From a virus (taxonomy: Duplodnaviria > Heunggongvirae > Uroviricota > Caudoviricetes), in the IMG/VR virus record IMGVR_UViG_3300043568_002650, positions 64,512 to 128,511 of that record: a stretch of 64,000 nucleotides of DNA; one strand, 5' to 3'. The stretch's first letter is position 1. Each line of letters opens with the position of its first letter. The notes under the pieces were generated by a model. It was not told the DNA's origin and ran no database searches. It saw only the letters and a program-made list of their open reading frames with translations. Of the stretch, positions 3,500 to 45,306 are shown piece after piece. Position numbers and translations under genes: made by a program.

Positions 3500-3516
3500 G
3501 ATAAATAACTAAAATA
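3500..3516 (+). promoter_or_regulatory. late-promoter-like motif GATAAATAACTAAAATA
   Basis: Conserved motif 11 nt before ATG 3527. Resembles the T4 late promoter TATAAATA. The same 17-mer recurs at 11997, 19649 and 47057. Confidence 0.55.
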
Positions 3517-3526
3517 ACTTCTAAAT

Positions 3527-11996: not shown

Positions 11997-12013
11997 GATA
12001 AATAACTAAAATA
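11997..12013 (+). promoter_or_regulatory. late-promoter-like motif GATAAATAACTAAAATA
   Basis: Identical to the motif at 3500. 11 nt before ATG 12024. Confidence 0.55.
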
Positions 12014-15897: not shown

Positions 15898-16098
15898 ATG
15901 TCATTTATTAATTGGGGAGAAGAATCACAAGAACAATTAGCTGCTCGTAAAAGAATGGAAGAGATTATGATGTTTGAACAAGCTGCGTTTAATGCAGCAA
16001 CTGCAGCGGCTGCAGCCGCTGGATCAGGTGGATCAGGTGGAATTAAATCTAATAAATACGTCGTTAATGGATATGTTGAGGATGGATATTTTGAATAA
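15898..16098 (+). CDS. stand-alone copy of the conserved N-terminal module (MSFINWGEESQEQ...) with a Gly-Ser linker
   Basis: 66-aa ORF consisting almost entirely of the shared module. Followed 23 nt later by a fibre-like gene, so possibly a split or coupled gene pair. Confidence 0.45.
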   Translation: MSFINWGEESQEQLAARKRMEEIMMFEQAAFNAATAAAAAAGSGGSGGIKSNKYVVNGYVEDGYFE

Positions 16099-19673: not shown

Positions 19674-19946
19674 ATGGCTAGAAAGCATATTAAGACAATG
19701 AACGAAAGATTCATGATGAGTGATACTGACACTAAACCTACGACTGCACCACCAGTAACAGCGCCACCGTCAACTCGACCATTTAGACCAGTGCCAACTA
19801 AGAGACCTAACGAAAAGACCAAGGGCAAACCGATGGCTGAATATGAAAACATGATCGATTTATTCTTTGCTGAATTAGAGAAGATTAAAGATACGCCAGA
19901 AGGAAAAGAAATGATCAAAAATTTACACAATAAATATGCAAAATAA
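19674..19946 (+). CDS. hypothetical Pro/Thr-rich small protein
   Basis: 90-aa ORF after a late motif. Confidence 0.4.
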   Translation: MARKHIKTMNERFMMSDTDTKPTTAPPVTAPPSTRPFRPVPTKRPNEKTKGKPMAEYENMIDLFFAELEKIKDTPEGKEMIKNLHNKYAK

Positions 19947-21444
19947 AGTATTTGATTTTAAATCCTTCATTAACGAAGTTTCATTAGAAGGAAATCGCGG
20001 AATTCCAGGAGAAGCTGGAGATACTTCTCCATCATGGTTGAAAAAAGTAGACGCTGAAAAAGGTGCTCGAATGGCAAATTTTGAGAGAGAAAATCGCCAA
20101 GATATCATGAGATTCATGCAATTAGTTGGCCAGTCTCAACAACTTCAAAGAGGTCACGAAGAAGAACTATCTACCTTAGCAGAAGAGTCATTTAGGACTC
20201 TTTTTAAAAGTTTACTTGATGATGTCATATTAGATTTTAAAATAGGCGAAGATTCTAAAGAAATTATTATGGAAACGCCTGAAAAAACTAGTGTTGAGGC
20301 AAAAATAGAGGAGATAACTGATGAAAGGATACTTGCTGCGATTGAAGTAAGAAAACTACTACGTACTATTCAACAAGGAAAAGGATTGACCTCTAAAGCG
20401 ATTCTAAACTTGCCAATGTTTAAGAAAGGTATTACAGATATCTTGGGACAGTCTGCAACAGAATACATTAGTATTTTAAATAAAATTTCAAACATTGCAC
20501 AATTTAATGATTGGAGACTATCTGAAGAAATGATTAAGATGATGTTGAGCGAAGGAACTGCTGGAGCATGTAAGATAGACTTTGAAGAAAAGGAAGACTT
20601 TGGAAAAGATGAAGATAAACCAGAAACTCCAGAAATTCCTGAAGAGACTGCTGAAGAACTATTGAAGCGTTTAGCTGCCGGCGATGACTTAGAAGATATC
20701 GAAGAAGCTGCAGATTTGGTTCAAGGATTAGGTGCAAAGATTACTGCTCGAGGAGTAGACATGTCAATATTAATTCACGAAGCAATTAAAGGTATTTATA
20801 TGTTACCTTTACAATTAAGTTTAGAAAATCTTTCTGACGACGAGGCAGAATTAGTAATTGCAAATACTGATACTCTACTTGATGAGGCTCAAGAGTTTAA
20901 GTATGGAACAGAAATGCAAAAGGCTGTATATAAAGCTATTTCATCTAATCCAATAGTAAAAGAGAGACTTGATAATTTTAGAAGATCTCTCGATACTGAC
21001 GATGCTTGGGACGAGATGGGAGCATTTGAAGAACAACTTTTTTGGATGGTTTTTGGAATAATTGCAGTACGCAGTCAAGAGGAACCTATAGAGATATTAA
21101 TGGTTATATATGCAGTTTTGATGGAGAGCCAAGAAGAGATAGACGAGTTATTTTACCCAATAGTGGAAGAAGCAATTAACAACTTGGATTCAGAAAATGA
21201 CTATCAAGCTACGAAAGGACAAGGCTTTCAAGCCCCTATGCAAGAGGAACCACGAATGGAAAAAGAGCCTGAGTCGATGGTCAACGCAGAAGAAGATGAA
21301 AACCTTTCACCAGATGAAGTAAACAATGCTATTCTTGATGCATATGCTAAAAAAGACATGGCAAAAGTAGCAAGACTACGTAAGAAATATCTTGGAGAAT
21401 CTAAATTGTTTCCTTATTCTATTTGGACAAAACTTAATTTTTGA
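19936..21444 (+). CDS. hypothetical acidic 502-aa protein with N-terminal FDFKSFINE motif (CTS-like)
   Basis: MQNKVFDFKSFINEVSLEG N-terminus. Glu-rich. Confidence 0.5.
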   Translation: MQNKVFDFKSFINEVSLEGNRGIPGEAGDTSPSWLKKVDAEKGARMANFERENRQDIMRFMQLVGQSQQLQRGHEEELSTLAEESFRTLFKSLLDDVILDFKIGEDSKEIIMETPEKTSVEAKIEEITDERILAAIEVRKLLRTIQQGKGLTSKAILNLPMFKKGITDILGQSATEYISILNKISNIAQFNDWRLSEEMIKMMLSEGTAGACKIDFEEKEDFGKDEDKPETPEIPEETAEELLKRLAAGDDLEDIEEAADLVQGLGAKITARGVDMSILIHEAIKGIYMLPLQLSLENLSDDEAELVIANTDTLLDEAQEFKYGTEMQKAVYKAISSNPIVKERLDNFRRSLDTDDAWDEMGAFEEQLFWMVFGIIAVRSQEEPIEILMVIYAVLMESQEEIDELFYPIVEEAINNLDSENDYQATKGQGFQAPMQEEPRMEKEPESMVNAEEDENLSPDEVNNAILDAYAKKDMAKVARLRKKYLGESKLFPYSIWTKLNF

Positions 21445-26660: not shown

Positions 26661-26681
26661 TTTATTTAATATTTTACAAAA

Positions 26682-26711
26682 ATAAAAAGGTCTCGGTGAG
26701 TCACCGAGACC
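26682..26711 (-). terminator. rho-independent terminator (perfect palindrome)
   Basis: GGTCTCGGTGA-G-TCACCGAGACC perfect 11-bp inverted repeat. On the minus strand it is followed by TTTTTATTTTTG. Confidence 0.6.
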
Positions 26712-27114
26712 TTCATAACTACTTTATCCATTTCCAATTGGAATATCATATCCTTATCTTGTCGGAGAAAAGTTAGGCTTAAAACCAACTCAAGGAATCA
26801 GATATCTTACCGTCAGCTCTATGATATGCATCTCATAGAATACGATTGGCTGTAAACAATTTCAGGTAAAGGTTCGGCCTTTTATGTCAGTCGCTCGACG
26901 TGTTATTACCCCAAAACCCCAATTCCGTTTCCCCTAACTATTTTGAATCTTTATCAAAATTAAAGACTCTCAAGGATTGGTAGCATCTATTGTTTTCATT
27001 GTGCCAACATTCAGCAAGTAGTCAAATGTAGAACCGTCGGTCATAGAGCGCCTTGAGAACACAAGGTTGCTTAATTATACTCAATTCCTACAGGCTCACA
27101 CTATTCTCAAAGAA

Positions 27115-27621
27115 CTAATCTATTATACTCTTTTTTTCTGGAAAGTTTATTGCAACTTGATATAATTCTCTAAGATACATCCAAGATTTACCAAGTTTAT
27201 TCTCTCCGATCCAATCATCATCAACCAGCATTGCTCCCCAATATAGGTTAGAACCACGAGATCCTCTAGCCGTCACATCTTCAACGATTATAGCATTACC
27301 CGTTTCTAAAAGAGAATCTATTAATTCTGGATGATGCTTGATTTTCAGGAGTAGACAAAGTGTCATATTTCCATAGTCATCATCAGACATTGGCTGAATT
27401 ACCATTTTCTCCCTATGTTTCTTAGCCATCATTTTAGCAGCAATCGGAGATTTCTGTTCTCGTATTAATTCACAAATCTCTTCATCTTTAAATCTCAGTG
27501 CCTGGAATAGAGCTTCAGTAGTTCTCCAAGTTTTGCCATCGTATTCCACAGGATATGGAGCCATATTTCCAAGCCAGCCATGCTGAAGTTTAACTTTAGT
27601 GAATGATATAATATTTTCCAT
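27115..27621 (-). CDS. NADAR (YbiA-like) domain protein
   Basis: GWLGNMAPYPVEYDGKTWRTTEALFQALRF matches the YbiA/NADAR core (FSNF...DGKTWPTSEHYFQAQKF). Confidence 0.8.
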   Translation of the reverse strand: MENIISFTKVKLQHGWLGNMAPYPVEYDGKTWRTTEALFQALRFKDEEICELIREQKSPIAAKMMAKKHREKMVIQPMSDDDYGNMTLCLLLKIKHHPELIDSLLETGNAIIVEDVTARGSRGSNLYWGAMLVDDDWIGENKLGKSWMYLRELYQVAINFPEKKSIID

Positions 27622-27631
27622 CTCTCTTTTA

Positions 27632-27649
27632 TAATAAATAACTAAAAGA
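27632..27649 (+). promoter_or_regulatory. late-promoter-like TAATAAATAACTAAAAGA
   Basis: Upstream of the GTG start at 27657. Confidence 0.4.
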
Positions 27650-27656
27650 TTTTTAA

Positions 27657-28091
27657 GTGTTAAAACATATCTTAGAAAGAGAAGAATTTTTTAGTCATGA
27701 TCTAGATTGGCAAGGGATAAGATTCGTGAGATTAGAATCTGAAGGAAGCCTAATGAATCTAGGAGTTATTCTTCCTGGAGAGGATATTCCTAATCCCGGA
27801 ATAGTATTAACCCTTCAGGTGATTCATGATTACCTATATCAACCTCACATAACCCTTGATGAAAACTTAAGACGCCGAGGTCTCGCGACTAAGATTTATC
27901 GAGCACTAATAGATAGACTTGGCCATCTCTATTCAGGTAAAGGCCGTCGTCAAAACCCAATGGTCGATAAGATCTGGGACAAACTAAAAAATGATCCAAC
28001 TATTGATTGTGCAAGTAGCTCTATTGGAGATGCTTGCTGGACTCTAGATAATCCTGATGGAGAAGATATTCGAGCATTTATAGAAGGATAA
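27657..28091 (+). CDS. GNAT-family acetyltransferase-like protein
   Basis: LRRRGLATKIYRALIDRLG resembles GNAT motif A. GTG start. Confidence 0.4.
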   Translation: MLKHILEREEFFSHDLDWQGIRFVRLESEGSLMNLGVILPGEDIPNPGIVLTLQVIHDYLYQPHITLDENLRRRGLATKIYRALIDRLGHLYSGKGRRQNPMVDKIWDKLKNDPTIDCASSSIGDACWTLDNPDGEDIRAFIEG

Positions 28092-28100
28092 ATAAAGTAT

Positions 28101-29228
28101 ATGGAACTATTATCATTTAACCAATTTATTAATGAAGGCGCGTATCTTGGAAAAGACGGTCTGGTTCATCTCAATATTGCAGATGATCGAAATAATCCAG
28201 ATGAAGTCCTAAAAACTGTGGACTCTGGAAAAGACCATTTTAAAGGTACACTACTTACTGGAATGAACGATAACAAGCCACACATGTGGTCATGGCCAAT
28301 CTTTTGGGGACTAGGGCCAGATAACATTTCACCAGAGATAGATCATCCAGGTAGAATAAAATATACTATGGATAAATTAAAGAATGGCGAAATTGCAGAC
28401 ATGCCATCAAGTTTAAATGATTTTATTAAAGGATCCTTTATGAAAGTTGGAATAACTCGTAATTTTAGACCAGACTACGTAGTTACAGTCGGTTCGACTG
28501 CAGGTTTAGTAAATTCAATGGCTAATGCAATTACTCAGACACTAGGGTCAGATGTAAAAATAATTGAACTACCGAAGGTCATATATTTCGATGCATATGA
28601 TGCATTTGATTGGGAAGAAGTAAATCGACAAGTGGATCGTCTTGGAAAAAAGACTTTCAATAAAGCTAAAAGCTTGATATATGAATATATTGATAAAGAA
28701 CAGACTCCTCCTGAACTGAAAGCAGCAATCAAGGCAGCGACTACTGTAGCTGAACTTAAAAAAGCAGTCGCAGTATATGGAATAATTTGGAGAGATATAG
28801 TTAATGATAAATCCGCAAAACCATTTATAGTAAGAAGTTCAGGTATAACGTCTGGTGGTTCTCGAAGCATGTGGAAAGCAAAATATGATTATGAGACTAC
28901 TTCATTTATAGACGCAGTTGTTAATTGTGCAGGAGGTGAAAGCAAAATGTTAATTATTGATGATAACAAACATTCTGGAACAGATATGCGGACGATTCGC
29001 CGTAATATTGAGGAAATTGTTGCTGGTTTAGATGAGAAAGGACCAAATGTTGATACTCAATTTGCATTTTATGTTTTATACAGAATGCCGACTAAAGAAT
29101 ATGCGGACCGTCGAGGAGAAAAACACCCATTTATTGCAACTGCACAAGTTGTTCAAGGCTTTCAAGCATTCTTACAAGGAGGTCAAGCGCCTCAAGTAGA
29201 TGACCAAATCGAAGATAATCTAGAATAA
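28101..29228 (+). CDS. hypothetical protein with a PRTase-like PRPP-binding motif and N-terminal SFNQFINE (CTS-like)
   Basis: MLIIDDNKHSGTDM resembles the type-I phosphoribosyltransferase loop. MELLSFNQFINEGAY N-terminus. Tentative call. Confidence 0.35.
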   Translation: MELLSFNQFINEGAYLGKDGLVHLNIADDRNNPDEVLKTVDSGKDHFKGTLLTGMNDNKPHMWSWPIFWGLGPDNISPEIDHPGRIKYTMDKLKNGEIADMPSSLNDFIKGSFMKVGITRNFRPDYVVTVGSTAGLVNSMANAITQTLGSDVKIIELPKVIYFDAYDAFDWEEVNRQVDRLGKKTFNKAKSLIYEYIDKEQTPPELKAAIKAATTVAELKKAVAVYGIIWRDIVNDKSAKPFIVRSSGITSGGSRSMWKAKYDYETTSFIDAVVNCAGGESKMLIIDDNKHSGTDMRTIRRNIEEIVAGLDEKGPNVDTQFAFYVLYRMPTKEYADRRGEKHPFIATAQVVQGFQAFLQGGQAPQVDDQIEDNLE

Positions 29229-29235
29229 CTAAAAG

Positions 29236-29252
29236 ATAAATAATAAAAAAAC
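29236..29252 (+). promoter_or_regulatory. late-promoter-like GATAAATAATAAAAAAA
   Basis: 9 nt before ATG 29261. Confidence 0.45.
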
Positions 29253-29260
29253 TTAATACA

Positions 29261-30637
29261 ATGTCTAAAAGAGATATTTATTGTGCGCCGACATTTGAGT
29301 CGTTTGCTATATTTGAAGACTCAAACTTAAGTCAATTGGGTTTGCCTAAAGATATGATTAGAAAGATTCATACTAAAGAGGAGCACTATACTGAACGTTA
29401 TCCTCAAATGGGTCATACTTATAAATCTAGAGCAGCTATTCCAATGCCTTACAAGTATTATATCCCTTCGCCAGACATTGAGATTCCTGAACCACTTAAA
29501 TTAAGAGGTCGTAAATCTACACGTAGTCCATTTCAAGACAAAGAGGTTAAGAGCGAATATACTGATTTTGCATGGTACTTACAATCAATTCCATTTGGTG
29601 AGATCCGAATCTTTATTGTAAATAAAGAGATTGATTTCTTTATGTTCCTATATCACAAACAACCAAGTAAAGGTGCTACTGGAGAACAGTATGCAGTAAT
29701 GGCATGGGACCCAGAAAGAAAGAAGGTAATTGATTATGGATATTCTGAGTTGACTACTAGTGGAGTAGATAGATCACAACTAAGAACTGTTCACGATACT
29801 AAAGGTGGAAACACAAACGGTAAGATTCAAGAATTCGTTAGAGCAATGACAAGAAAAGGAGAAAAGAAATATGCTCCTTCCCTAGAAAAACCTCTATATG
29901 TTTATGTTTTACCAGTTACTCCAAATGCTGAACCTAGAACAACTAGAGAAACTAGAACGTCAGCTAAAGGAGAAGCTACATCATATGATTTCGTAAGAGT
30001 ATTTGCTAGTCGATTTGCAAAGATCACAGATAAAGCTAGACCTCAAATTAAAGAGAAAATGACAACTCAAATTGACGGTCAACCTCATTCTAGAACAAAT
30101 AATTCTGAGTTTGATGAATTAGCATCTGCACTAGGTACCGATGCAGGTAGAACACAAACTTGGCTATTTTCAAAATTTAGAGACTTTAGACAAGAGCTTT
30201 TTGAAGAGGGTAGAGGTAGAGTACAAGGAGCTCCTAGTGCATACACTAAAACTTCCGGCTTTGAATTAGAAAAAGAAAATCAGGAGGCAAGCTCTCGAGG
30301 AATGTCACACACTTCAGTATACAGTGTAGCTAAGAAAAAATTTAGTCCAGATGAGGAAGGTTCAGATCCTGAAACTGGATTTAGAGAAGCACAAGCTGAA
30401 AAATATAAAAGAGAATTACCTATTGCTGGAAATTATGCGTCTATTCCAAGTATTATCGCTACTCACACATTAGATGGAGCAGTTGATAAATTCGCAGCGT
30501 ACCTTGTTACTGGTAAAATTAAAACACCTGAAATAAGTATTGCTGGTCTATTAGGAATATCTATGGATGATACTGACAATGAATTCAAGAGAACATCAGC
30601 AGCTGGCGGAAAAGCTTCAGGAAACTGGTTATTTTAA
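29261..30637 (+). CDS. hypothetical 458-aa protein
   Basis: Long ORF, basic, Thr/Arg-rich central region. Confidence 0.5.
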   Translation: MSKRDIYCAPTFESFAIFEDSNLSQLGLPKDMIRKIHTKEEHYTERYPQMGHTYKSRAAIPMPYKYYIPSPDIEIPEPLKLRGRKSTRSPFQDKEVKSEYTDFAWYLQSIPFGEIRIFIVNKEIDFFMFLYHKQPSKGATGEQYAVMAWDPERKKVIDYGYSELTTSGVDRSQLRTVHDTKGGNTNGKIQEFVRAMTRKGEKKYAPSLEKPLYVYVLPVTPNAEPRTTRETRTSAKGEATSYDFVRVFASRFAKITDKARPQIKEKMTTQIDGQPHSRTNNSEFDELASALGTDAGRTQTWLFSKFRDFRQELFEEGRGRVQGAPSAYTKTSGFELEKENQEASSRGMSHTSVYSVAKKKFSPDEEGSDPETGFREAQAEKYKRELPIAGNYASIPSIIATHTLDGAVDKFAAYLVTGKIKTPEISIAGLLGISMDDTDNEFKRTSAAGGKASGNWLF

Positions 30638-30651
30638 ATTAAAGAGAAGAT

Positions 30652-31245
30652 ATGTTAAATTTTAATCAATGGTTAAACCACATTAATGAGAATACTGATG
30701 CTGTTTCAACAGTAGATAAGAATAATCTTACTGCAGTATTATCAGCAAGCGGATACGCAGTAGGCTCTGCTCCTTTTGAAATAGCAAAAATTATTGCAAC
30801 TAAAGAAGGCTGGGCGTCTAAACCAAATGGAGGAAAGGGTACGCGAGCATATCGTAATAATAATCCTGGAAATCTTGATGGAACTGACTTTAAAGACATT
30901 GATCCTGCAGTTACAGTTGAAACAATGTTAGACGGAACTAAAGGTCGATATGCTAAGTTTTCTAAACCTGAGCTTGGTGCAAAAGCTTTAATTGACAAGA
31001 AGATAATTAAATGGGCAAATGGAGGAATGCCTACAACTAGTGGAAATCAAACACTAATTGTTTCAAGTAAAGGAGGAAAAAAATATATTAAAGGCGAGAA
31101 GCCTACTGTGGCTCAATTCTTTTATACTTATGCTCCACCTAATGAGAACGATACTGAAGGTTATATTAGAGGATTTATTACAGCTGCTAAAAAGCTTAAA
31201 GCTGATGCAACTAGAGATACCCTAGTTGCTGATCTTCTTTCCTAA
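30652..31245 (+). CDS. hypothetical protein with N-terminal FNQWLNHINE motif (CTS-like)
   Basis: MLNFNQWLNHINENT N-terminus. 197 aa. Confidence 0.5.
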   Translation: MLNFNQWLNHINENTDAVSTVDKNNLTAVLSASGYAVGSAPFEIAKIIATKEGWASKPNGGKGTRAYRNNNPGNLDGTDFKDIDPAVTVETMLDGTKGRYAKFSKPELGAKALIDKKIIKWANGGMPTTSGNQTLIVSSKGGKKYIKGEKPTVAQFFYTYAPPNENDTEGYIRGFITAAKKLKADATRDTLVADLLS

Positions 31246-32550: not shown

Positions 32551-34416
32551 TTACTCAGTCGGAGGAGTTACCTTTGCTGTAACATCAGTGATTACTTGTT
32601 TCTTTTCCTGGATCTGCTTTAACATTTCCATTCCAAGTAATCCATTGATTGCACCATTTCCATCATTACCTGAGATCAAGATCTCTGGGATAATTTTGAT
32701 TCCGTTAGTACCAATCATTTCAGTAACTTTTAATTTGCCAAAGTTATCTGCTCCCATTGCTTTAACCTGTTTCTCATAAGCTTCAGCAGTTGATTTACCG
32801 ATTGCTGCAATTTTACTTGCTTCAGCATCACCAGTAAGTTTAATTTGAGCCGCATCTGCTTCAGCCATCATCTTCTTAGCTTTGGCTTGAGCGCCAGCTT
32901 TTAATTCTAGTGCTTTTGCTTCACCTTCAGATCTCTTAACAGATGCTTCAGCTTCACGTTGTGAGATCTCTACTGATTGTTGAGCAGCAACCATTTTCCC
33001 TTGCATATCAGCTAGGGCTTTTGCAGATTCTAATGTCTTACGTTGATCTTGTGCCTTACGCTGAGTTTCGAAAGTTACCTCCTCTTCTTGAGCAATCTTA
33101 CGATCAGTAAGAGTTTTCATTAGGGATTCAGGTGGAGTAATATCACCAATTAAGGTATCTACTGCATGTACATTGTACTCGTCTAATACTCTACTGATAG
33201 ACTCTTTAGCTGCATTTTGTCGAGCTTGACGAGTAGTTAAGAATGCAATAACATCTGAGTCTTGAGCAGAGTTTCTAAAGTAGTTACCGATAGTTGGCTC
33301 TAATACTTGAGATACTAAGTTCTGCATTGATCCGAATCGTGCAATTACCTTTGGTGCTTCTGTTGCTGGGATATGTATGATTTGAGATACATCTAAGTTG
33401 AATGGGAAACCGTCTTTAGAACGTACTGTGATTGTACTTAATCCCTTGTCTAATTGATGAGACTCGTTTCGTGCATTCGCCCAGTTAAGTACTAGATTAG
33501 TTGTAGGTACAACTTCAATCTTATGAGTATATGGATTGATTGCATATTTTCCAGGATCAAGTGGAGTAATACATACACCCTTTTCACCTTTCTTCACGAT
33601 ATTACCGTGCTTAAAGGTTTCGCCAGTAGTGTCTACTCCTTCATCTCCAACATAAGAGATTACAACACCTACATGTCCAATAGGAATTTGAGTCATTGCG
33701 ACCTTTTCAACTTGTACTGCCCATGGGTTAAGAGAGTAATTACCCGCTTGAACTACTTGAGTCTGTAGACCACGTTGACCGTTATTTAATAAGAATGAAT
33801 CGAAATCTTGGAAGTTATTATGACCTTCGATTACTTTTCCAGCAATTGCACTCTGATCTAGTGGAACACCATCTAGTGCAGTCATTACCCCGACTTGACC
33901 ATCTTCAATATATGTAATATCAGTCATTGCTAAATCAAATAGGAATGGATTGATACGATATACACCATTATTTAAGTAACCAACTTGCTTACCTCGTTGA
34001 CCGCCATTTGTTAAGAATGCATGGGTGTCTTGGTAATTATCACACTCTACGTGTCGAGCTAGGATAGCACCGGTTGGTAGTTGTGCACCGTCTTTAGCAG
34101 ATAAGAGTCCAATCTTTCCTTGTGGAATAATCGTTAATGGTGACTGCTCAATTGAGAATTGCCATACCCAATAGAACCAATAGAGTCCAGGAGCTAAGGT
34201 GTCTGCTTGAAATCCAGGTTCACCATTAAGTGCAATAATCTTACCGTCAGGTAAGGATCTATTTGCTCCAAATAGAACGAATTTCTTAGTAACTAATCCA
34301 ATCTTGTCCTCTGGAATAATCACCATACCGAAAAATACTCTTAGTGTAAACTTGTAAAACACTAAAGCGATAAGTGGAATCGCCATCCATGCATAATTTA
34401 AAACTGTTTCTAACAT
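32551..34416 (-). CDS. flotillin / SPFH-family membrane protein (YqiK-like)
   Basis: N-terminal TM helices. Repeated GQRG.Q..V...G.Y..NP SPFH-type segments. C-terminal flotillin-like Ala/Glu/Lys coiled coil (EAEASVKRSEGEAKALELKAGAQAKAKKMMAEADAAQIKL) and a ...NGIKIIPE tail. Confidence 0.7.
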   Translation of the reverse strand: MLETVLNYAWMAIPLIALVFYKFTLRVFFGMVIIPEDKIGLVTKKFVLFGANRSLPDGKIIALNGEPGFQADTLAPGLYWFYWVWQFSIEQSPLTIIPQGKIGLLSAKDGAQLPTGAILARHVECDNYQDTHAFLTNGGQRGKQVGYLNNGVYRINPFLFDLAMTDITYIEDGQVGVMTALDGVPLDQSAIAGKVIEGHNNFQDFDSFLLNNGQRGLQTQVVQAGNYSLNPWAVQVEKVAMTQIPIGHVGVVISYVGDEGVDTTGETFKHGNIVKKGEKGVCITPLDPGKYAINPYTHKIEVVPTTNLVLNWANARNESHQLDKGLSTITVRSKDGFPFNLDVSQIIHIPATEAPKVIARFGSMQNLVSQVLEPTIGNYFRNSAQDSDVIAFLTTRQARQNAAKESISRVLDEYNVHAVDTLIGDITPPESLMKTLTDRKIAQEEEVTFETQRKAQDQRKTLESAKALADMQGKMVAAQQSVEISQREAEASVKRSEGEAKALELKAGAQAKAKKMMAEADAAQIKLTGDAEASKIAAIGKSTAEAYEKQVKAMGADNFGKLKVTEMIGTNGIKIIPEILISGNDGNGAINGLLGMEMLKQIQEKKQVITDVTAKVTPPTE

Positions 34417-34475
34417 TTGTTTAATTTAATTGATTTATATTATTATACTACTATTTGTCTAATGATAAAACTTTA

Positions 34476-35960
34476 TTATCCAATAAGTTTATCGATGTTA
34501 GACCGAACTTCGGTAAGAGTAGTCTCATTCAAGAATTTACCATCTTCATAGATAGTTTGCAAGATTCCAGTCTCTTCCTCTTCCCAAGAACATTGAGTGT
34601 GTACTTCATGATCTTCATCTACCATGATTAGACCCTTTAGGGATTTCTTAGTTCCATCATCAGTGATTGGATCTTTAAAAATATCATAAGCTTTACCATC
34701 AGCTTCGAACCATGCACCCTTAGCTGCAAATCCAAAAGTATCTCGAGTATTCATTTGATATGTGTATGAACCAACACCTAACACGATATTAGTTGAAGCA
34801 AATCCTTTAGCGGCTAATCGCTCATAGATTTGAATTTGGCGATCCAGTGTAATTGAGTCTCCATAGATTGCACCAATATGAGGATCTAGAACTTTGAATC
34901 CTTGTTCGTTGATTGTACCACCGAAGATATCCCATAGTAATTCGATAACGCCTTTATTTTGAGGTTCGTTTCTAGCCTCTTCACTTTCTCCATCAGGATC
35001 AAAACCGCCCCATCCACAAAGAATATCTACTGGATCTCCAGAGTCAGGGCGAATAACTAATTTACCTTCGCGAGACATAATTTGCTCCTTGTTTTCAGGC
35101 AAGTATTGAGTAATCAACGTCCATAAGTCAAAGGTATCGGATACAACTGAAAGAATTCCAGTAGGAAATTGATCCATAAAGTATTTCAACATTTGTGATT
35201 CACCCATTGTAAAGATACAAGTAGTTGATACTGAGTGTTCGGATGCATTTACAGAATTGATACTGACTTCGTTTTCTGGTTCTCCATAGAAGTATCGAGC
35301 TCCTGGAATCACAATAATTGAATCTGAGCCTCTGAAAGAGGTAGCGTGACCAAGTCCACTAGATAACATATCCCATGGGCTTAATCCTCTAGCACTAAAG
35401 TCATGAGCTAAGAAAGGAATCAACCATGCATTTGCTGGATCAGTCGTCATTACCCATTCAACAAGATTTCTTTTGTATTGAAGAGCAATAGTTGCGGATG
35501 TTGCAGGTTTCCATGCAAGAGAGGAGACAATTGTTTCTAGATAAAGAGTTAGCCAAGCAAATCCTGCAACAGTATTAACGAAAGTCATGTGAGGAACATT
35601 TGGACTTGTCTCAATTCCTTCAGGTAGAGCTTTAAAACGAATAGGCAAGTAACCTAGGTCATGTAGTTCACCAAAATGAGTAGAGTCAAACTCCATTCCT
35701 AGATACATTGACATGTCCTGACCAAACTTTAAAGCTTCGTCTTTAGGGAGACTGAAAAAATTCTCTTGATATTCGTCATGTAACCAACGAACTACTAGTT
35801 GCTGACCAAATGAAACAATTTTAGTAACACCTTTAGGCGCGTGTTTTGTGCTGCGAGGAATCCAGGTTCCATATAGGAAGTCTGTTCCTGGTGCTAGCAT
35901 TTTGCGATGGCCTATCTTGTATCCATCAGAATAAAAAAGCGTGATTGGTTTAAATGACAT
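34476..35960 (-). CDS. nadV: nicotinamide phosphoribosyltransferase family protein (NadV/NAMPT-like, or Namat-like)
   Basis: DGYKIGH (DSYKVTH), KALPEG, AHDFSARG, SVVSDTFD, VIRPDSGDPVD, AIYGDSI and FKDPITDDGTKKSLKGL all align with NAMPT hallmarks. Confidence 0.85.
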   Translation of the reverse strand: MSFKPITLFYSDGYKIGHRKMLAPGTDFLYGTWIPRSTKHAPKGVTKIVSFGQQLVVRWLHDEYQENFFSLPKDEALKFGQDMSMYLGMEFDSTHFGELHDLGYLPIRFKALPEGIETSPNVPHMTFVNTVAGFAWLTLYLETIVSSLAWKPATSATIALQYKRNLVEWVMTTDPANAWLIPFLAHDFSARGLSPWDMLSSGLGHATSFRGSDSIIVIPGARYFYGEPENEVSINSVNASEHSVSTTCIFTMGESQMLKYFMDQFPTGILSVVSDTFDLWTLITQYLPENKEQIMSREGKLVIRPDSGDPVDILCGWGGFDPDGESEEARNEPQNKGVIELLWDIFGGTINEQGFKVLDPHIGAIYGDSITLDRQIQIYERLAAKGFASTNIVLGVGSYTYQMNTRDTFGFAAKGAWFEADGKAYDIFKDPITDDGTKKSLKGLIMVDEDHEVHTQCSWEEEETGILQTIYEDGKFLNETTLTEVRSNIDKLIG

Positions 35961-35975
35961 ATTATAAATTTTTGA

Positions 35976-36470
35976 TTAGTTACTTGTGTTAATTAAATCG
36001 TCACGTAATTGAGTAAGTACTTCACCTAACCAGTTAGTACCTTTCCAATTCTTTGGATCGTGAATTTTCGGATCATCTTCAGATAAGCCGATTCCCCATA
36101 CAGTATCGTATGCTGCAGCCTCGACTAGAAGTGTTCCTTCTGTTTCTAATAAAAAAGCTAAGAGCTTAGGGTTCTGTGTAAATTTTAAGTAGCATCCATC
36201 ATAAACTATTTGCTTAGCGAATTCGTTCCAGATAGAAGAATCAAAATTCTTGACCTTTCGACCTAGTGCTTTTTGTTTACCTGGATCTTTTTCAAAAAGA
36301 ATATCTTCGAGAGTCTCATCATCACTGAATAGTCTAGCTTTTCCAGCCATCATCCATTGCTCAGAGCAATTGTATTCATTTCCTTCTTCATCTTCAAAAG
36401 TGCAAGGATGCCAATTTGAGAATGGGTTACGCGTCTTATAAAAGAACGTGTATTTTGTGTACTGTTTCAT
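35976..36470 (-). CDS. NADAR (YbiA-like) domain protein
   Basis: TFFYKTRNPFSNW, SEQWMMAGKARLF, LLVEAAAYDTVWGIG and GTNWLGEVLTQLR match the YbiA/NADAR family. Confidence 0.8.
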   Translation of the reverse strand: MKQYTKYTFFYKTRNPFSNWHPCTFEDEEGNEYNCSEQWMMAGKARLFSDDETLEDILFEKDPGKQKALGRKVKNFDSSIWNEFAKQIVYDGCYLKFTQNPKLLAFLLETEGTLLVEAAAYDTVWGIGLSEDDPKIHDPKNWKGTNWLGEVLTQLRDDLINTSN

Positions 36471-36664
36471 ACTGTTTCGTTTTTGTTTGATGATAATGTC
36501 AAGCAGACTTTACTGCCAGCAAATCTGTTCCACTTTTTTGTTTGTATTTGGACAACGTCCGAAATTGCTGATTGTAATTTAATTGTAAATTCTTTAAGGT
36601 GTACACAATCATATATACCCATACTTTCAACTTCAATCTCAATAGTTATTTTTCGTTTTGACAT
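36467..36664 (-). CDS. hypothetical small protein
   Basis: 65-aa ORF within the operon. Confidence 0.3.
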   Translation of the reverse strand: MSKRKITIEIEVESMGIYDCVHLKEFTIKLQSAISDVVQIQTKKWNRFAGSKVCLTLSSNKNETV

Positions 36665-36667
36665 TAT

Positions 36668-37006
36668 TTAGTTATTAAAGTTCTTATAAAAATCTTTTCC
36701 CGAGCCAGTAACATATTGAACTGATAGTCCAGTCGGGGTATGTAGTTCAACAAACATTGGGTTTCCAGAATAGGTACATACTTGCGTAACATACTCTAGG
36801 TTTTTTATCTCAGTTAGAAAATTTCTATTTTCTCCTAAGATCTTTAGCGAAGCATCAGTGAGATCTAATTCGTTTGATATTGTGATCTCTATGCAGTATT
36901 CGCCAGTAGCGATTGCTCGAAAGTCGCTTAATGCAGGTTTGTCATGTTTATCCACTCCAGTGTAGGTAATATTGATTGATATCTGCTTGTGCAAGAACGT
37001 GTTCAC
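36668..37006 (-). CDS. hypothetical protein
   Basis: 112-aa ORF. It overlaps the upstream gene's 3' end by 59 nt. Confidence 0.35.
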   Translation of the reverse strand: MNTFLHKQISINITYTGVDKHDKPALSDFRAIATGEYCIEITISNELDLTDASLKILGENRNFLTEIKNLEYVTQVCTYSGNPMFVELHTPTGLSVQYVTGSGKDFYKNFNN

Positions 37007-37727
37007 AAGTCGCTTTCACAATTTCAAGAGCTTGGATATACCATGAGTTGTCGCTTTCAGTCACGACATACATGCAATCACGTTCTCTAAGGAGTGTAGA
37101 CTTTCCAGGTATAATCGCTAAGACTTTAAGTGGTTCAGCCATATAGAACTCACCAGTCTTATTAGAGTAGTTTGAGTTAAGTCTATTTTCTCGACTAGTC
37201 TCATCGATAAAAGCACTAAGTGCAGCAAACTCAGATTTTATGTCAGGTTCACTAAAAATATTTGTCGAGACTGTGTTTACTCGATATGCACCTTTCTCTT
37301 TAAATAGAGCGATTATTTTAGTTACTCTAGTTAAAGCATCTTGCCAGTTAGGTTGAAACGTATACTCTTCATCCTCTTTTTGAAAGATATCATGTATTGT
37401 AGGTAGTCCTAAATTGCGTAGTATTCTCTCAAGTCCACCAGAATTATATGAGCTTCTGAAGTAGCCTATTTTGAAATAGTGATCAGGATAATCTGGATGA
37501 GGTAACTCTATACACTCCTTACCTGCCTTATCGTCTCCCCACTGGTCAAGTCCTAGACTCTCAGCAAATTCTTTCTCCTTTGTACGAAGTTCATCTTTTA
37601 CCTCTTGTGCCATTGAATCGTATTCGTGACCTTTCCATAGTTTTTCTGAAAATTCTTCGTATTCTTTCTCAAGTCTTTGAGTCTTTTCAAAATCCTGATA
37701 CTTATAAAGATAAATGTCTAATCCCAT
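36948..37727 (-). CDS. hypothetical 259-aa protein within the NAD/ADP-ribose operon
   Basis: Long ORF with no motif recognised. Confidence 0.45.
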   Translation of the reverse strand: MGLDIYLYKYQDFEKTQRLEKEYEEFSEKLWKGHEYDSMAQEVKDELRTKEKEFAESLGLDQWGDDKAGKECIELPHPDYPDHYFKIGYFRSSYNSGGLERILRNLGLPTIHDIFQKEDEEYTFQPNWQDALTRVTKIIALFKEKGAYRVNTVSTNIFSEPDIKSEFAALSAFIDETSRENRLNSNYSNKTGEFYMAEPLKVLAIIPGKSTLLRERDCMYVVTESDNSWYIQALEIVKATCEHVLAQADINQYYLHWSG

Positions 37728-37775
37728 TATAGTGTTATTTATAGATACTATACTAAATTATAGAGAAATTAAAAA

Positions 37776-38309
37776 CTATTGTACATAATTGACTATTGTC
37801 ACTTCACAAAACCAGAGTTCAGTCTCAATAATCTTTTCAATCCTTTCCCAGTCTCCTCCAGCAAGACCTGCACCAATCTTTGGTAGCCCAATATGTTTGC
37901 CTCCAAATAGGTTATTGATTTTTCGCATACACAAGGTAAATGCTTCATAATCGAATGGAGCAGTTGCACCATCTTTATGATTACGACCGTACTTATATTG
38001 AGTATATGCATTTACTACAATTAGCTCAGGTTCATTACGATTATTTTTTGCATCTTCGAGTGACCAAATAGCCTTTTCGCCAAGTACAACTGTTTTATAG
38101 TCGATATTACCTAACTTGTTGATATCTCGACCTAAGAGTTCCATCTCAAATCGATCGCAGCCAAAAGCTTTTGCCATTTGTGGAGCAATACCAGCTCCCA
38201 TAGTACTCATGCAATTACAGCCATGTGCAATCACATCAAACTTGCCCTCTTTAGCAAGCTGGATCAAGTCTCCATCTATCCTATTCATCTGCATCCTCGA
38301 TTGAAGCAA
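37776..38309 (-). CDS. macro domain (ADP-ribose binding/processing) protein
   Basis: GDLIQLAKEGKFDVIAHGCNCMSTMGAGIAPQMAKAF resembles GDIT-LAVDAIVNAAN..LGGGGVDGAIHRAAG. Later IGAGLAGGDW resembles the second macro phosphate-binding loop. Confidence 0.6.
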   Translation of the reverse strand: MLQSRMQMNRIDGDLIQLAKEGKFDVIAHGCNCMSTMGAGIAPQMAKAFGCDRFEMELLGRDINKLGNIDYKTVVLGEKAIWSLEDAKNNRNEPELIVVNAYTQYKYGRNHKDGATAPFDYEAFTLCMRKINNLFGGKHIGLPKIGAGLAGGDWERIEKIIETELWFCEVTIVNYVQ

Positions 38310-38475
38310 TTATTGTTCTCTCAATTGGATAACAGCAAACAAGTTTACTATCCGCATAGAATGCATAGTAACCACTAGAAGTGCCACTATTTGTGGTAGT
38401 ACTAAAGTTTTCTGCAAACGCGGTGTATCGACATTCACGATCGCCAATCATTACAATTAACTGATACTTATTCAT
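38281..38475 (-). CDS. hypothetical small protein (start moved to the internal Met MNKYQ)
   Basis: This ATG overlaps the stop of the upstream gene (GATGAATAA). The longer 38535 start would overlap by 68 nt. Confidence 0.3.
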   Translation of the reverse strand: MNKYQLIVMIGDRECRYTAFAENFSTTTNSGTSSGYYAFYADSKLVCCYPIERTIIASIEDADE

Positions 38476-38668
38476 CTTCGTCTTTCTTTTTTGGAAAATC
38501 TCCATCTGCATCGCAGTGAGCTGGAGGATATCCATGTGTACTAATGTTGAGGTGTCTCCAGAAACGGTTCCATACTCTAAATAAAAAGTTTAGGGGTACT
38601 GAAATTAGGATGAGTACTCCAATAAATGTCCAGAATGATCTGAACGTAAATTCTAAAAAATCCATCAT
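38468..38668 (-). CDS. small membrane protein
   Basis: 66 aa with a TM helix FWTFIGVLILISVPLNFLF. Confidence 0.35.
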   Translation of the reverse strand: MMDFLEFTFRSFWTFIGVLILISVPLNFLFRVWNRFWRHLNISTHGYPPAHCDADGDFPKKKDEDE

Positions 38669-39138
38669 ATTAATTCTTTGTTTTTAATGTCTTCTAATAA
38701 TTCGTCTAACTTTTCATAGTTAGGTATTCCATATCGTTCACATACGATATCAACGTTGCCTTTTCTCCAAAAGCCAGTCGGGCAGCATACTAGCATCCTC
38801 CCAGAATCTGCAAACTTACCGAATTCAAGTAGAGAGATCGGTGATTTTGTGTCTGGAGAAAAATACATGATTATCAAGTCAGCTTTCTCTAACGCAGTTA
38901 ATTCCCAGTTTACTTGCTGATAAAATTGAGGATTTGTTATACTCTGTGGCCAGCTTGAATCCCATTCATCTCGTCGAGGATTAAGAATAGCAATATCTTT
39001 GGGATACTTTTTAAAGTAGTTCTCGACTAGGGTTTGCCAGTCTTCTGCAATTCCCATTTCAATACTGCCAGCTAGGAAGATAGTCCGGATATTTGCGCCA
39101 GCTTTACTTATTGGATACGGCGGTTTGATTACTTTCAT
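38665..39138 (-). CDS. nucleoside 2-deoxyribosyltransferase-like (DNPH1/Rcl-type) protein
   Basis: 157 aa. IFLAGSIEMG...ILNPRRDEW...ADLIIMYF pattern resembles the N-deoxyribosyltransferase fold. Motif-level call only. Confidence 0.4.
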   Translation of the reverse strand: MKVIKPPYPISKAGANIRTIFLAGSIEMGIAEDWQTLVENYFKKYPKDIAILNPRRDEWDSSWPQSITNPQFYQQVNWELTALEKADLIIMYFSPDTKSPISLLEFGKFADSGRMLVCCPTGFWRKGNVDIVCERYGIPNYEKLDELLEDIKNKELI

Positions 39139-39139
39139 A

Positions 39140-40033
39140 TTAAAATATATTAAATTGGGTTAAGAAGCTATTATCGACTGTGTAATCTGAATATTCGTCG
39201 ACTTTAATATCCTTGACACTATTTGTACAGTAAACACCAGTAAAATAGTTGGAAAGTTCAAGTAGACCAGCTGAAAATATTCCATGAGTGACAATCAAGT
39301 AGATTTTATCACCAAATAAGTCTCGCGGTCTCTGTTCGCGAATAGCTTTTGCAACTTCAATAAATGTTCGACCTCCGTCACAAATATCGTCGATGATTAC
39401 AAAGTTTTTTCCACGAGAACCATCGATGTGTGGAAGTTCAGTGTGTAGGATCTTGCCTGTGGTCAAGTCTCTGACTTTAGATGCAGTCGCAACTTCTCTG
39501 ATATCAAAATGCTTAGCTACTCCATATATCTTTTTAAGTGCACCGGCGTCTGGCGAAATAATACATATCTTTTCTCGAGCAGCATTCGTATTATCAATTG
39601 AGGTAAGAGCAGCTTTGATTAGACTATAGTTGTCTATCTTATCTAGCCGATCAATACATGCTTCGATTACGTCAGAGTGAGGATCTAGGACTAGGACTCC
39701 TTTATAGTGCTGCGCATTAATAATTGGAGCAACAACATCCTTGATATAATTGATTGAGCCCTCTTCGAACTTACGATCACTACGACCGCCTAAGAAGTAT
39801 GGAATATAGAGAAAAATATCAGTCATTCCCATATTCTTTAGAGCGGCAGTTGCACAAAGAATAAGTTCAAGATCCTGAAAGCTAGTAAATCTTGAATAGA
39901 TCTTAATTGCAATTTCAGATGCTACACCTGAAGTTATCTTAATAGACTGCTGACCATCAGGAAATTTTGTTTTCTCGAACTTAATATCTGATTTCTCAGG
40001 ATATGCGAGATTAAGTGTGCTAATTTTTGACAT
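39140..40033 (-). CDS. prs: ribose-phosphate pyrophosphokinase family protein (Prs-like; could be ADPR-PP synthetase)
   Basis: IPYFLGGRSDRK (IPYFGYARQDRR), LVLDPHSDVIEACID (DLHAEQIQGFFD), ISPDAGALKK, NFVIIDDICDGGRT (VLVDDMIDTGGT) and THGIFS (THPIFS). Confidence 0.85.
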   Translation of the reverse strand: MSKISTLNLAYPEKSDIKFEKTKFPDGQQSIKITSGVASEIAIKIYSRFTSFQDLELILCATAALKNMGMTDIFLYIPYFLGGRSDRKFEEGSINYIKDVVAPIINAQHYKGVLVLDPHSDVIEACIDRLDKIDNYSLIKAALTSIDNTNAAREKICIISPDAGALKKIYGVAKHFDIREVATASKVRDLTTGKILHTELPHIDGSRGKNFVIIDDICDGGRTFIEVAKAIREQRPRDLFGDKIYLIVTHGIFSAGLLELSNYFTGVYCTNSVKDIKVDEYSDYTVDNSFLTQFNIF

Positions 40034-43786: not shown

Positions 43787-44527
43787 TTGAAGCATAATGC
43801 ACGCACTTTTAATCAATGGATAAACGAGAAAGTAGAATACAATCGTGATCTTTGTCCTAAATTTTGGGAAGAGGGTAAGATGGACACAGCAATACGAGCA
43901 AAACTTCTTGCAATAGCTGACGATTTCTGGTCTTCACTAAAATTAGAAGTCCCAATTATGGATATTCAATTGACTGGTTCAATAGCTAATTTTAATTGGA
44001 ATAAGGATTCAGATTTAGATGTACATATTATTATTGATTTTGCACAAATTGATGGAAACCTAGAACTAGTTAGAAAAGCCTTAGATGGTCAGAGGTTTAT
44101 GTGGAATCTACGCCATCCAGTAGTTCTTAGAGGACATGATGTTGAATGTTATGTTCAACACAAAGACGAGCAACACGTTGCGTCAGGTCTCTTTTCGATA
44201 CTTAGAGATAAGTGGATAATTGTTCCTAATTGGAGTGAACCTAATATTGATCAGAAGGATGTTGATGAAAAGATGAGAGTCATTAAGACTGAAATCAAGA
44301 TGGTGAAGGTAAAGGCTAGATCAGCTGAGGGTGATGAAGCTCAAAATTTACATGATTACTTAGATCGTATCAAAAAGAAGATCATGAATGATCGTAAAGA
44401 GGGTCTCGCTAAAGACGGCGAATTTGCAGTTGAAAATCTAGTCTTTAAAGAGTTACGCCGAGATGGAACAATTGAAGAAATCATTGACTTGCTATCAGAA
44501 ATATATTCAAAGATATATTCAGAATAA
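43787..44527 (+). CDS. pol-beta-superfamily nucleotidyltransferase with N-terminal TFNQWINE motif (CTS-like)
   Basis: GSIANFNWNKDSDLDVHI matches the hG[GS]x9-13DhD NTase signature. MKHNARTFNQWINEKVE N-terminus. Confidence 0.55.
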   Translation: MKHNARTFNQWINEKVEYNRDLCPKFWEEGKMDTAIRAKLLAIADDFWSSLKLEVPIMDIQLTGSIANFNWNKDSDLDVHIIIDFAQIDGNLELVRKALDGQRFMWNLRHPVVLRGHDVECYVQHKDEQHVASGLFSILRDKWIIVPNWSEPNIDQKDVDEKMRVIKTEIKMVKVKARSAEGDEAQNLHDYLDRIKKKIMNDRKEGLAKDGEFAVENLVFKELRRDGTIEEIIDLLSEIYSKIYSE

Positions 44528-44547: not shown

Positions 44548-45306
44548 ATGCATAAATATTTTAATTTTACGAAAATTTACGAAGCTGAAAAGATGGGAGC
44601 TCCTCTCGATCCAGAAGAGATGGGAATGCCTGGAAGCTTACCTGAAGCTATCCCTACTGATAAATTGGAAGATTTTGAACTACTAGCGAAAGAAAATATC
44701 CTAGAGATTACACTAACTATGAAGGATATGGATGGGCTAGCAAATGGCCAGTCAGTATCTAAAGAGGATGCTAAGTGGAAAGATAAAATAAATGAAACTA
44801 AATCTAAAGATATTAAGCTAGTTATTCTAAATACTAAAAACGATACATCTAAAAACGATGCAGAAGCACTAGTATTTAATCTAGATGATTCAATTACTGG
44901 TGATATAGTAGAAGGAATTAAGTTAGGCAATATTACACAAGTATTAAAAGGAACCGGTGGAGATGGAATTGAAATTCCTGATATTACAGTTAGATTTATC
45001 AAGTCAGTTGAACTAGATACTTCAACTAAAGAAACAGTTGTTCCAGCTTCTCCTGAACAAATTGAGAGTGGTGTAGTTACTCCAAATGCAGTTGCTGGTG
45101 AAATGCCAAATGAATCTAGAGGAATTATGAGTTTTAGTCAATTTGTTAATGAGGGTAAAAAACAAATGGCTAAAGGTAAGGTAGCTAAAAAAGATGCTAC
45201 ACTAAAAAAGAAGCCTAAAAAAGATAAAGGCTTTCCAGATATGAGCGGAGACGGTATCGTTACAAAAAAAGATATCCTAATTGCTAAAGGAGTAATTAAA
45301 AAATAA
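44548..45306 (+). CDS. acidic protein with a basic C-terminal tail and an internal MSFSQFVNEG motif
   Basis: 252 aa. Internal in-frame ATG at 45127 is preceded by GAGGAA and starts MSFSQFVNEGKKQMAKGK..., so possibly a nested 60-aa product. Confidence 0.5.
   Translation: MHKYFNFTKIYEAEKMGAPLDPEEMGMPGSLPEAIPTDKLEDFELLAKENILEITLTMKDMDGLANGQSVSKEDAKWKDKINETKSKDIKLVILNTKNDTSKNDAEALVFNLDDSITGDIVEGIKLGNITQVLKGTGGDGIEIPDITVRFIKSVELDTSTKETVVPASPEQIESGVVTPNAVAGEMPNESRGIMSFSQFVNEGKKQMAKGKVAKKDATLKKKPKKDKGFPDMSGDGIVTKKDILIAKGVIKK

Follow-up and report, generated by a model that had tools for sequence, protein, structure and literature searches.

The stretch of DNA analysed here, 64,000 nucleotides from a virus of the Caudoviricetes (positions 64,512 to 128,511 of IMG/VR record IMGVR_UViG_3300043568_002650; hereafter the window, along which all positions are numbered), carries at 27115..29228 a NADAR-family gene, NADAR2, and, close by on the opposite strand, a gene for a protein with a predicted phosphoribosyltransferase (PRTase) fold, the two forming a pair conserved in related phages. 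The contig encodes a T4-like portal, a DNA polymerase, a primase and a helicase, and the phage is T4-like in its head genes, its gp20-like portal having its best matches in huge uncultured phages and Lak phages. NADAR2 (27115..27621, minus strand, 168 aa, recognised by Pfam NADAR) is a predicted YbiA-type NADAR N-glycosidase and the partner of the PRTase-like (PRT-like) gene. It is separated by a divergent control region of 35 nt (27622..27656), holding a late-like promoter motif and a weak -10-like element, from the gene of an accessory neighbour, a GNAT-fold protein of 144 aa with a GTG start (27657..28091, plus strand). A late-like ATAAATAA element (28088..28095, plus strand) overlaps the GNAT stop codon and lies 5 nt upstream of the start codon of the PRT-like gene (28101..29228, plus strand), whose 375-aa product, of a divergent type I PRTase fold, belongs to an unannotated phage family; it opens with the capsid-targeting-like leader MELLSFNQFINE (28101..28136, plus strand) and bears a motif resembling the loop that binds phosphoribosyl pyrophosphate (PRPP), MLIIDDNKHSGTDM (28947..28988, plus strand, residues 283-296). 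All three open reading frames (ORFs) lie exactly where an earlier note on this DNA had placed them; the labels early and late, as applied to genes throughout, are read from motifs, not from expression.

The earlier note had picked out of the 375-aa ORF both this loop-like motif and its N-terminus, and both are indeed found there. It had also proposed a PRTase-like protein, naming the absence of a PRTase fold as the outcome that would speak against it; structure prediction confirms a PRTase-like fold, the model having the core alpha/beta arrangement of type I PRTases. In the model the PRPP-loop-like motif consists of a strand (283-290) followed by a helix (294-308), as in PRTases, with the acidic pair D287-D288 at the end of a hydrophobic strand (MLII-DD) and a phosphate grip reading S-G-T-D, in which D295 occupies the canonical Thr position. 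Among 105 diverse family members, D287 and D288 (the acidic pair), N289 and D295 are each ~90% conserved, and the same holds for a flexible loop rich in Lys and Arg and for a G-S loop that follows the first core strand; a conserved loop modelled at low confidence (flexible), R245-S-S-G...G-G-x-R...K261-Y262, stands where PRTases have their catalytic loop. By hhalign, the MLIIDDNKHSGTDM stretch aligns to a Pfam-positive PRTase of the huge phage LR756511.1. Because the phosphate grip is atypical, enzymatic activity of the modelled protein is plausible, not assured.

Database searches place the protein in no described family: it gave nothing significant in Pfam, PHROGs, NCBIfam or PADLOC, neither the region (as nucleotides) nor the protein (as protein) matched any of 50,697 phage records, its profile returned only noise against PDB sequences, and Foldseek against BFVD found a single similar structure, that of an uncharacterised phage protein. 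The PRT-like family comes from metagenomes only (21 clusters at 90% identity), and a profile search of 1.84 billion proteins yielded 86 representatives (clusters at 50% identity), defining a sizeable unannotated family. One reading of such a protein is that it does not catalyse at all and instead binds nucleotides or single-stranded DNA inside the head, accompanying the DNA end into the cell and guarding or guiding it in the manner of ComF, which acts in transformation, with its link to NADAR being regulatory or coincidental. We regard this as decidedly unlikely, since the acidic pair, the G-S loop and the Lys/Arg-rich flexible loop kept across the 105 members look like an active site, and since the strict association with NADAR and the parallel with the bacterial system DS-32, both described below, would be left unexplained.

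The internal proteins of T4 and its Alt enzyme are packaged by means of an N-terminal capsid-targeting sequence (CTS), which the gp21 prohead protease trims off, and they enter the cell together with the injected DNA. The leader of the PRT-like protein conforms to a motif, aromatic-x-x-aromatic-[ILV]-N-E, whose strict form is found at the N-terminus of at least 9 of the 106 ORFs of the window and just four times in the remaining ~18,000 residues, so that its placement is not due to chance. Its N11, E12 and G13 are invariant in close homologues (alignment A1), and the leader is retained throughout the whole divergent family. The T4 CTS comprises ten residues, MKTYQEFIAE, of which the fourth and seventh govern targeting and the eighth and tenth processing, gp21 cutting after L/I-x-E (PMC9026906), and F6, F9, I10 and E12 of the PRT-like protein match Y4, F7, I8 and E10 of T4 IPIII (PMC9026906). 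Cleavage by a prohead protease is therefore predicted after E12 (I-N-E/G, the slash marking the cut), and, as the leader fits the T4 determinants and the gene has a T4-late-like promoter motif, a packaged enzyme is plausible from the sequence.

As the earlier note had stated, NADAR2 is a real family member (Pfam NADAR PF08719, E 3.4e-17, 63.6 bits against a cutoff of 35.1) and lies some 8 kb from the main operon, the operon NADAR (NADAR1; 35976..36470, minus strand, E 1.7e-50) being 8.35 kb away. The description of NADAR2 as a second NADAR paralogue holds insofar as there are two NADARs; the pairwise comparison that the note had called for gives 27% identity over 128 aa, and the best-scoring curated models differ, so that the two are no recent paralogues but distant members of the family. 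NADAR1 exceeds the cutoff of the riboflavin-intermediate N-glycosidase model TIGR02464 (161.5 bits against 73.7), under which NADAR2 remains (49.9 bits); the best NCBIfam match of the latter is DS32_2 (NF053876), 'NADAR family anti-phage protein', at 83.4 bits (E 1e-23, cutoff 240). NADAR2 aligns to the structure of Escherichia coli YbiA (2b3w) with E 2.6e-14, including the catalytic-type E36 (TEALFQALRF, helix 1) and E114 (IIVEDV, last strand); both are invariant among NADAR2 orthologues, as is Arg43, which replaces the usual Lys at the position of PnNADAR K50 and T4 AdfN K43, the roles of these residues being known from other NADARs (PMC11543638, PMC11825919). NADAR2 is thus a NADAR of the YbiA type, with N-glycosidase activity predicted; enzymes of this type cut 5-phosphoribosyl-N(exocyclic amine) bonds of riboflavin intermediates and ADP-ribosyl-N2-guanine (PMC11543638, PMC11125620).

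The central observation, missing from the earlier note, is that NADAR2 and the PRT-like gene are a conserved pair. We counted distinct contexts in which the neighbourhood of a clear PRT-family member could be read (n = 12, including the window), and in 12 of 12 a NADAR2 orthologue adjoins it (the window and loci L001, L004, L006, L007, L009, L010, L011, L013, L014, L015 and L045). The adjacent orthologues are 54-64% identical, usually divergent and 40-70 nt away, and the pairing persists with PRT-like identity down to ~31% and with changed flanking genes. In LR756511.1, a NADAR2 orthologue (50% identity) has as its next gene on that strand one for a PRTase of 486 aa, which lies above the Pfam Pribosyltran threshold (30.3 bits against a cutoff of 26.3) and begins (M)DFKEWYFINEG, that is, with a FINEG leader; the NADAR stop codon and the GTG start of the PRTase gene overlap (TAGTG) behind AGGAGG, and the pair directly follows the genes for a gp21-like protease (Peptidase_S77), the scaffold and gp23. 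This is a second, independent arrangement with a different PRTase. Another pairing occurs in a Patescibacteria metagenome-assembled genome (JBDRGY010000005.1; L042, 2836..4447), where a PRTase-CE gene lies immediately upstream of a NADAR2-like gene; its product (376 aa) has the canonical PRPP loop FIFLDDVLATGNT, and a DUF559 endonuclease-like gene adjoins the pair. This is a bacterial PRTase and NADAR pair of the kind of DS-32, a validated two-gene anti-phage system of E. coli composed of a PRTase (DS-32A) and a NADAR (DS-32B, WP_032260665.1) and reported with DefensePredictor (10.1101/2025.01.08.631726, PMC13092281).

The dependence does not run both ways. NADAR2-type genes number in the thousands and stand alone in Planctomycetota, Bacteroidota and other bacteria at 50-60% identity to NADAR2; constant association of NADAR2 with a PRTase, which we also considered, fails, at least 25 of 27 bacterial loci having the gene on its own, as do 3 of the 4 long phage contigs sampled. 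If the PRT-like protein needs NADAR and NADAR does not need it, just such an asymmetry is to be expected, and PRT-like genes accompanied by NADAR, with NADAR often solitary, fit the pattern of a hazardous enzyme kept with its safeguard. The same distribution also lends itself to a reading in which NADAR2 works on its own in counter-defence, as AdfN does, taking off the ADP-ribose that DarT1-like toxins of the host attach to phage DNA, while the PRT-like protein is an internal head protein with no relation to it and their adjacency is inherited synteny. Every phage NADAR tested to date removes guanine-ADP-ribose and several neutralise DarT1 (PMC11825919, PMC11125620), NADAR2 is ~30% identical to NADARs of T5-like vibriophages, NADAR2-type genes occur without a PRTase in many phages and bacteria, and all paired loci come from related phages. 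We nevertheless judge it unlikely, because the pairing outlasts both the divergence of the PRT-like protein to ~31% identity and the replacement of flanking genes, recurs with a different PRTase and overlapping stop and start codons, and has independent bacterial counterparts.

A contig of 134 kb from a metagenome (L050) shows a related locus without the pair: at 1263..4278 the GNAT gene and the genes resembling those for the 458-aa and lysozyme-like proteins that follow the PRT-like gene in the window are kept and the NADAR-PRT pair is missing, a YAcAr/SLOG-like gene follows the GNAT gene, and 1.2 kb upstream there is a remote member of the PRT family whose loop, DDTIIGGTT, is canonical.

The layout of promoter-like motifs suggests that the two partners are expressed at different times. 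The motif ATAAATAAYWAAAA, which resembles the T4 late promoter TATAAATA, occurs 17 times in the window (~1 expected), mostly on the plus strand, and an early-type motif, TAGTATAAT, occurs 11 times (~1.5 expected), always on the minus strand, so that the two together would give a strand-separated early/late layout. An exact match to the former, ATAAATAACTAAAA (27634..27647, plus strand), precedes the GNAT gene, another exact copy (29236..29249, plus strand) precedes the gene of the 458-aa protein, and the short late-like ATAAATAA before the PRT-like gene is conserved in L001 and L006; the earlier note's label of a late-type unit for these plus-strand genes is thus borne out at the level of motifs. 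Of the 13 leader-bearing ORFs of the window, 10 have a late-like motif and none an early one. On the other side, just upstream of the NADAR2 start, there is a weak -10-like TTATTATAAA (within 27622..27656, minus strand), and NADAR-side elements in orthologous loci, gtagtataat (L004), tagtaaaat (L007) and ggtatatt (L006), resemble TAGTATAAT. NADAR2 would accordingly be a divergent gene of non-late type, early and late being inferred from motifs. The earlier note had supposed that the two NADARs differ in timing; this is not supported, as both lie on the minus strand, in the orientation of the early-type TAGTATAAT promoters, and the contrast would rather be between NADAR2 and its late neighbours.

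Further late-like copies are found at 987..1000, 3501..3514 and 11998..12011 (plus strand) and further early-type copies at 3168..3176, 34442..34450 and 54732..54740 (minus strand), motifs of the two types often standing back to back in divergent intergenic regions. Three plus-strand genes (3527..4333, 12024..14807 and 15898..16098, encoding 268, 927 and 66 aa) have nearly the same N-termini (MSFINWGSESQEQKEIRKR…) and nearly identical upstream promoter regions.

The main operon (32551..40033, minus strand) encodes SPFH/Band7, NAMPT, the riboflavin-type NADAR, Macro-like, nucleoside 2-deoxyribosyltransferase-like and PRPP synthetase proteins, and looks like an NAD+ salvage or reconstitution-type set that would supply PRPP too. 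Its presence raises the possibility of a metabolic pair, in which NADAR2 would act on damaged or signalling ribosyl compounds to free a base or ribose-5-phosphate and the PRT-like enzyme would join a base to PRPP again, as an extension of salvage: NAMPT, PRPP synthetase and the deoxyribosyltransferase-like, Macro-like and riboflavin-type NADAR genes lie 5-12 kb away, and NADARs are already known from NAD+ salvage neighbourhoods of phages (PMC9503650). A capsid-targeting leader and a late promoter are, however, ill-suited to a salvage enzyme, the two genes are divergent with promoters of different types, and the fold match is generic, to no salvage PRTase family, all of which makes such a role improbable in our view.

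The reading that we favour, tentatively and as one possible account, is that of a PRTase-like effector made late, packaged and injected, with an early NADAR to reverse or contain the ribosyl-type modification that it makes. The two-gene module of these large T4-like phages would then be a writer/eraser or toxin/antidote pair. The PRT-like enzyme would be made late and loaded by its leader into proheads, where the prohead protease would trim it after E12; injected together with the DNA, it would act within the first minutes of infection, ahead of all phage gene expression. Using PRPP or a related activated ribose, it would attach a phosphoribosyl-type group to a target nitrogen, most likely of a nucleobase in nucleic acid or of a nucleotide, although a host target may also be considered. 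The resulting ribosyl-N bond is of the class cut by YbiA-type NADARs, as would befit the product of a PRTase acting on an amine; NADAR2, expressed from its non-late promoter, would hydrolyse that bond at an early point of the new infection and once more during the late build-up of the enzyme that precedes packaging, thereby limiting the modification in time and protecting the phage's own molecules. A more specific version, that a capsid-injected enzyme dependent on PRPP or ADP-ribose pyrophosphate (ADPR-PP) modifies DNA or RNA nucleobases, or some other host macromolecule, by phosphoribosylation at the moment of infection, and that NADAR erases the mark, seems to us doubtful. The folds, the leader, the promoter motifs, the conserved pairing and the likeness in composition to DS-32 are shown; the packaging, the catalysis, the donor, the target and the action of NADAR2 on the product we infer in either case.

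Several observations weigh against this account of an injected PRTase-like effector kept in check by NADAR2. A gp21-type protease was not found among the scanned ORFs of the 64-kb window. The PRPP loop is atypical, reading S/T-G-x-D where T-G-x-T is canonical, with N289 also conserved; the 375-aa protein has no match to Pfam PF00156 or to PRTase-CE (PF24390) at E <= 0.1, and it could be the ComF-like non-catalytic binder discussed above. The promoter of NADAR2 in the window (ttattataaa) is weaker and a poor match to the early consensus. As to the pairing, no NADAR lies within 2-5 kb of the remote PRT-family member of L050 (33 bits); the phages with paired loci are all related, so that the linkage may partly be inherited synteny; and NADAR2, at 50-60% identity to stand-alone bacterial genes, may act on a general substrate unrelated to its neighbour.

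The gene between the partners does not appear to belong to the module. That it encodes a GNAT-like protein, as earlier proposed, is confirmed by the GNAT fold of its predicted structure, Pfam GNAT (Acetyltransf_1) being sub-threshold on the 144-aa ORF (E 0.07, 13.9 bits, cutoff 20.7); GNAT motif A (R/Q-x-x-G-x-G/A, strand 4 to helix 3) is matched by R72-R-R-G75-L-A77, and the GTG start is supported by homologues that start at the same position, for example with ATG in L006. Among the paired loci its profile hidden Markov model (HMM) matches only the window clade and L006, the gene is present in L050 and L051 without an adjacent NADAR or clear PRT-family member, and the 142-aa gene that follows the PRT-like gene in L004 has no BLAST similarity to it. 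Most NADAR-PRT loci are without a GNAT gene, which is an accessory neighbour and no conserved partner.

Downstream of the PRT-like gene follow those of the 458-aa protein (29261..30637, plus strand), with its own late-like motif and a CTS-like N-terminus, TFESFAIFE/D, and of a lysozyme/transglycosylase-like protein of 197 aa (30652..31245, plus strand), with the leader MLNFNQWLNHINE, the final gene of the late unit. The 458-aa protein often co-occurs with the NADAR-PRT pair, with homologues 50-59% identical in L004 and L006 and HMM matches in L009, L013, L045 and L050; the 197-aa protein matches the virion-associated lysin families PHROG 873/7182 and has orthologues with Pfam Phage_lysozyme2. 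The interval 27657..31245 therefore looks like a late operon of packaged proteins (PRT-like, 458-aa and lysozyme-like). Such leaders are carried by the ORFs at 1014..1514, 19936..21444, 28101..29228, 30652..31245, 43787..44527, 50289..50732, 60372..60974 and 61316..61708 on the plus strand and at 1535..2122 and 55947..56255 on the minus strand, and looser ones by those at 4885..5829, 29261..30637 and 44548..45306 (all plus strand); they include nucleotidyltransferase-like (43787) and lysozyme-like (30652) proteins. This spread of the leader suggests an unusually large set of packaged proteins, and the F-x-x-F-I-N-E leader could serve to predict the packaged proteome of such uncultured phages. 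The motif also lies inside three adjacent late ORFs, 44548..45306 (aa ~195), 45314..46099 (aa ~104) and 47084..47824 (aa ~136), as MSFSQFVNEG, KTFESYVNE and KGFTQFVNEG, perhaps marking internal cleavage sites, internal starts or gene fusions.

The NADAR2 stop codon is followed by a non-coding stretch of ~450 nt (26680..27070, minus strand) that is highly conserved in L001 and L009, GC-richer and structured, with an early-promoter-like GAGTATAAT before it (~27075..27083) and a hairpin and T-run terminator at its end (~26685..26715). RNAalifold gives 65 pairs, 12 of them with compensatory changes, and a single sequence has a z-score of -2.2; Rfam holds no match. Its core (…GGGGTAATAACACGTCGAGCGACTGACATAAAAGGCCGAACC…) recurs beside tRNA-like genes in an unrelated viral contig of 187 kb (L049), in a context from which NADAR and PRTase are absent, so that the element was rejected as part of the module; it is a candidate new structured phage RNA. 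Elsewhere in the window, ARAGORN calls a tRNA with a CUA (amber-reading) anticodon at 58208..58296 (plus strand), opposite the DNA polymerase ORF, with similar odd tRNA calls in L049; this could be either a spurious call or a suppressor tRNA like those of recoded huge phages. That polymerase ORF (57406..58842, minus strand, 478 aa) matches only the C-terminal half of family models, which suggests a split polymerase, and an HNH/NUMOD homing-endonuclease-like gene (53991..54731, minus strand) lies directly upstream of the portal gene.

Among known systems, the closest in composition is DS-32, in which a PRTase-fold gene likewise adjoins a NADAR gene and which has been read as a toxin-antitoxin partner swap of DarTG (10.1101/2025.01.08.631726, PMC13092281), a toxin/antitoxin logic that matches the asymmetry of the phage loci. 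In contrast with DS-32, a bacterial co-directional operon, the module is phage-encoded and its genes are usually divergent, with promoters of different types; the PRT-like protein has a capsid-targeting leader and matches neither PRTase-CE nor PF00156, and NADAR2, far under the DS32_2 cutoff, is no DS-32B equivalog. Homology of the PRT-like protein to a bacterial NADAR-linked PRTase-CE found no support, hhalign against the L042 protein giving a probability of 0.1% (DS-32A itself, WP_000097610.1 (PMC13092281), was not compared). The parallel also suggests that the module might be aimed at DS-32-like or ShosT-like defences, with NADAR2 as an orphan antitoxin and the PRT-like protein as a decoy or competitor: DS-32B is the best curated match of NADAR2, phages do carry orphan antitoxin-like NADARs (PMC11825919), and PRTase toxins are established defence effectors (PMC11961720, PMC12961424). 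That match is, however, far under its cutoff (83 against 240 bits), a decoy would have no need of the active-site-like residues that the PRT-like family retains, and the idea presupposes hosts that carry DS-32, so that we hold this to be very improbable. The 375-aa protein has no significant sequence match to ShosT, and the antidote here would be an enzymatic NADAR, unlike that of ShosTA, a DprA-like DNA-repair protein.

With the internal proteins of T4 and with Alt, the PRT-like protein shares an N-terminal leader of 10-12 residues in which aromatics three apart are followed by I/L-x-E, and the locus shares a late-like promoter motif and a T4-like portal, with gp21 and gp23 genes near the pair in a relative; Alt is also a precedent for an injected ribosyl-transferring enzyme. 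The cargo here, however, has a PRTase fold and is not an ADP-ribosyltransferase, the expected donor being PRPP and not NAD+, it has a dedicated N-glycosidase partner where T4 Alt has none, and the leader is found on many more ORFs (at least 9 in 64 kb), packaging being a prediction here. A PRTase fold is a new cargo fold for an internal protein of the CTS type, and would widen the range of enzymes injected with phage DNA beyond ADP-ribosyltransferases such as T4 Alt. As in DarTG1 and phage AdfN, a NADAR hydrolase with conserved catalytic Glu residues may reverse a ribosyl-base modification in phage-host conflict; the residue in the last strand is the YbiA-type Glu in NADAR2, an Asp in DarG1 and a His in T4 gp30.3, and, unlike in DarTG1, the partner has a PRTase fold and no DarT-like ADP-ribosyltransferase is adjacent. 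In E. coli, the NADAR YbiA is encoded in a LexA-controlled operon with YbiB, a TrpD2 PRTase-like nucleic-acid binder (PMC11125620), again a YbiA-type NADAR encoded with a PRTase-like protein; YbiB, however, has a class III (TrpD-like) fold and is chromosomal and damage-inducible, whereas the PRT-like protein is of type I fold.

The module thus resembles both DS-32 and the packaged effectors of T4 and is a member of neither, its separation from DS-32 following from the score of NADAR2 under the DS-32B cutoff, the unrelatedness of the PRT-like protein to PRTase-CE and its location in phages. PRTase and NADAR pairs have been recognised as a defence system only recently. The module provides a second, independent and experimentally tractable system of this composition, fixed in a phage lineage and with its PRTase-like half wired for capsid delivery, and it predicts a concrete chemistry for such pairs, in which PRPP serves to make a ribosyl-N bond that NADAR then cuts. 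If this is true, phage-host conflict would involve a ribosylation chemistry independent of NAD+, and it would also explain how DS-32 works and what many 'orphan' YbiA-type NADARs are for.

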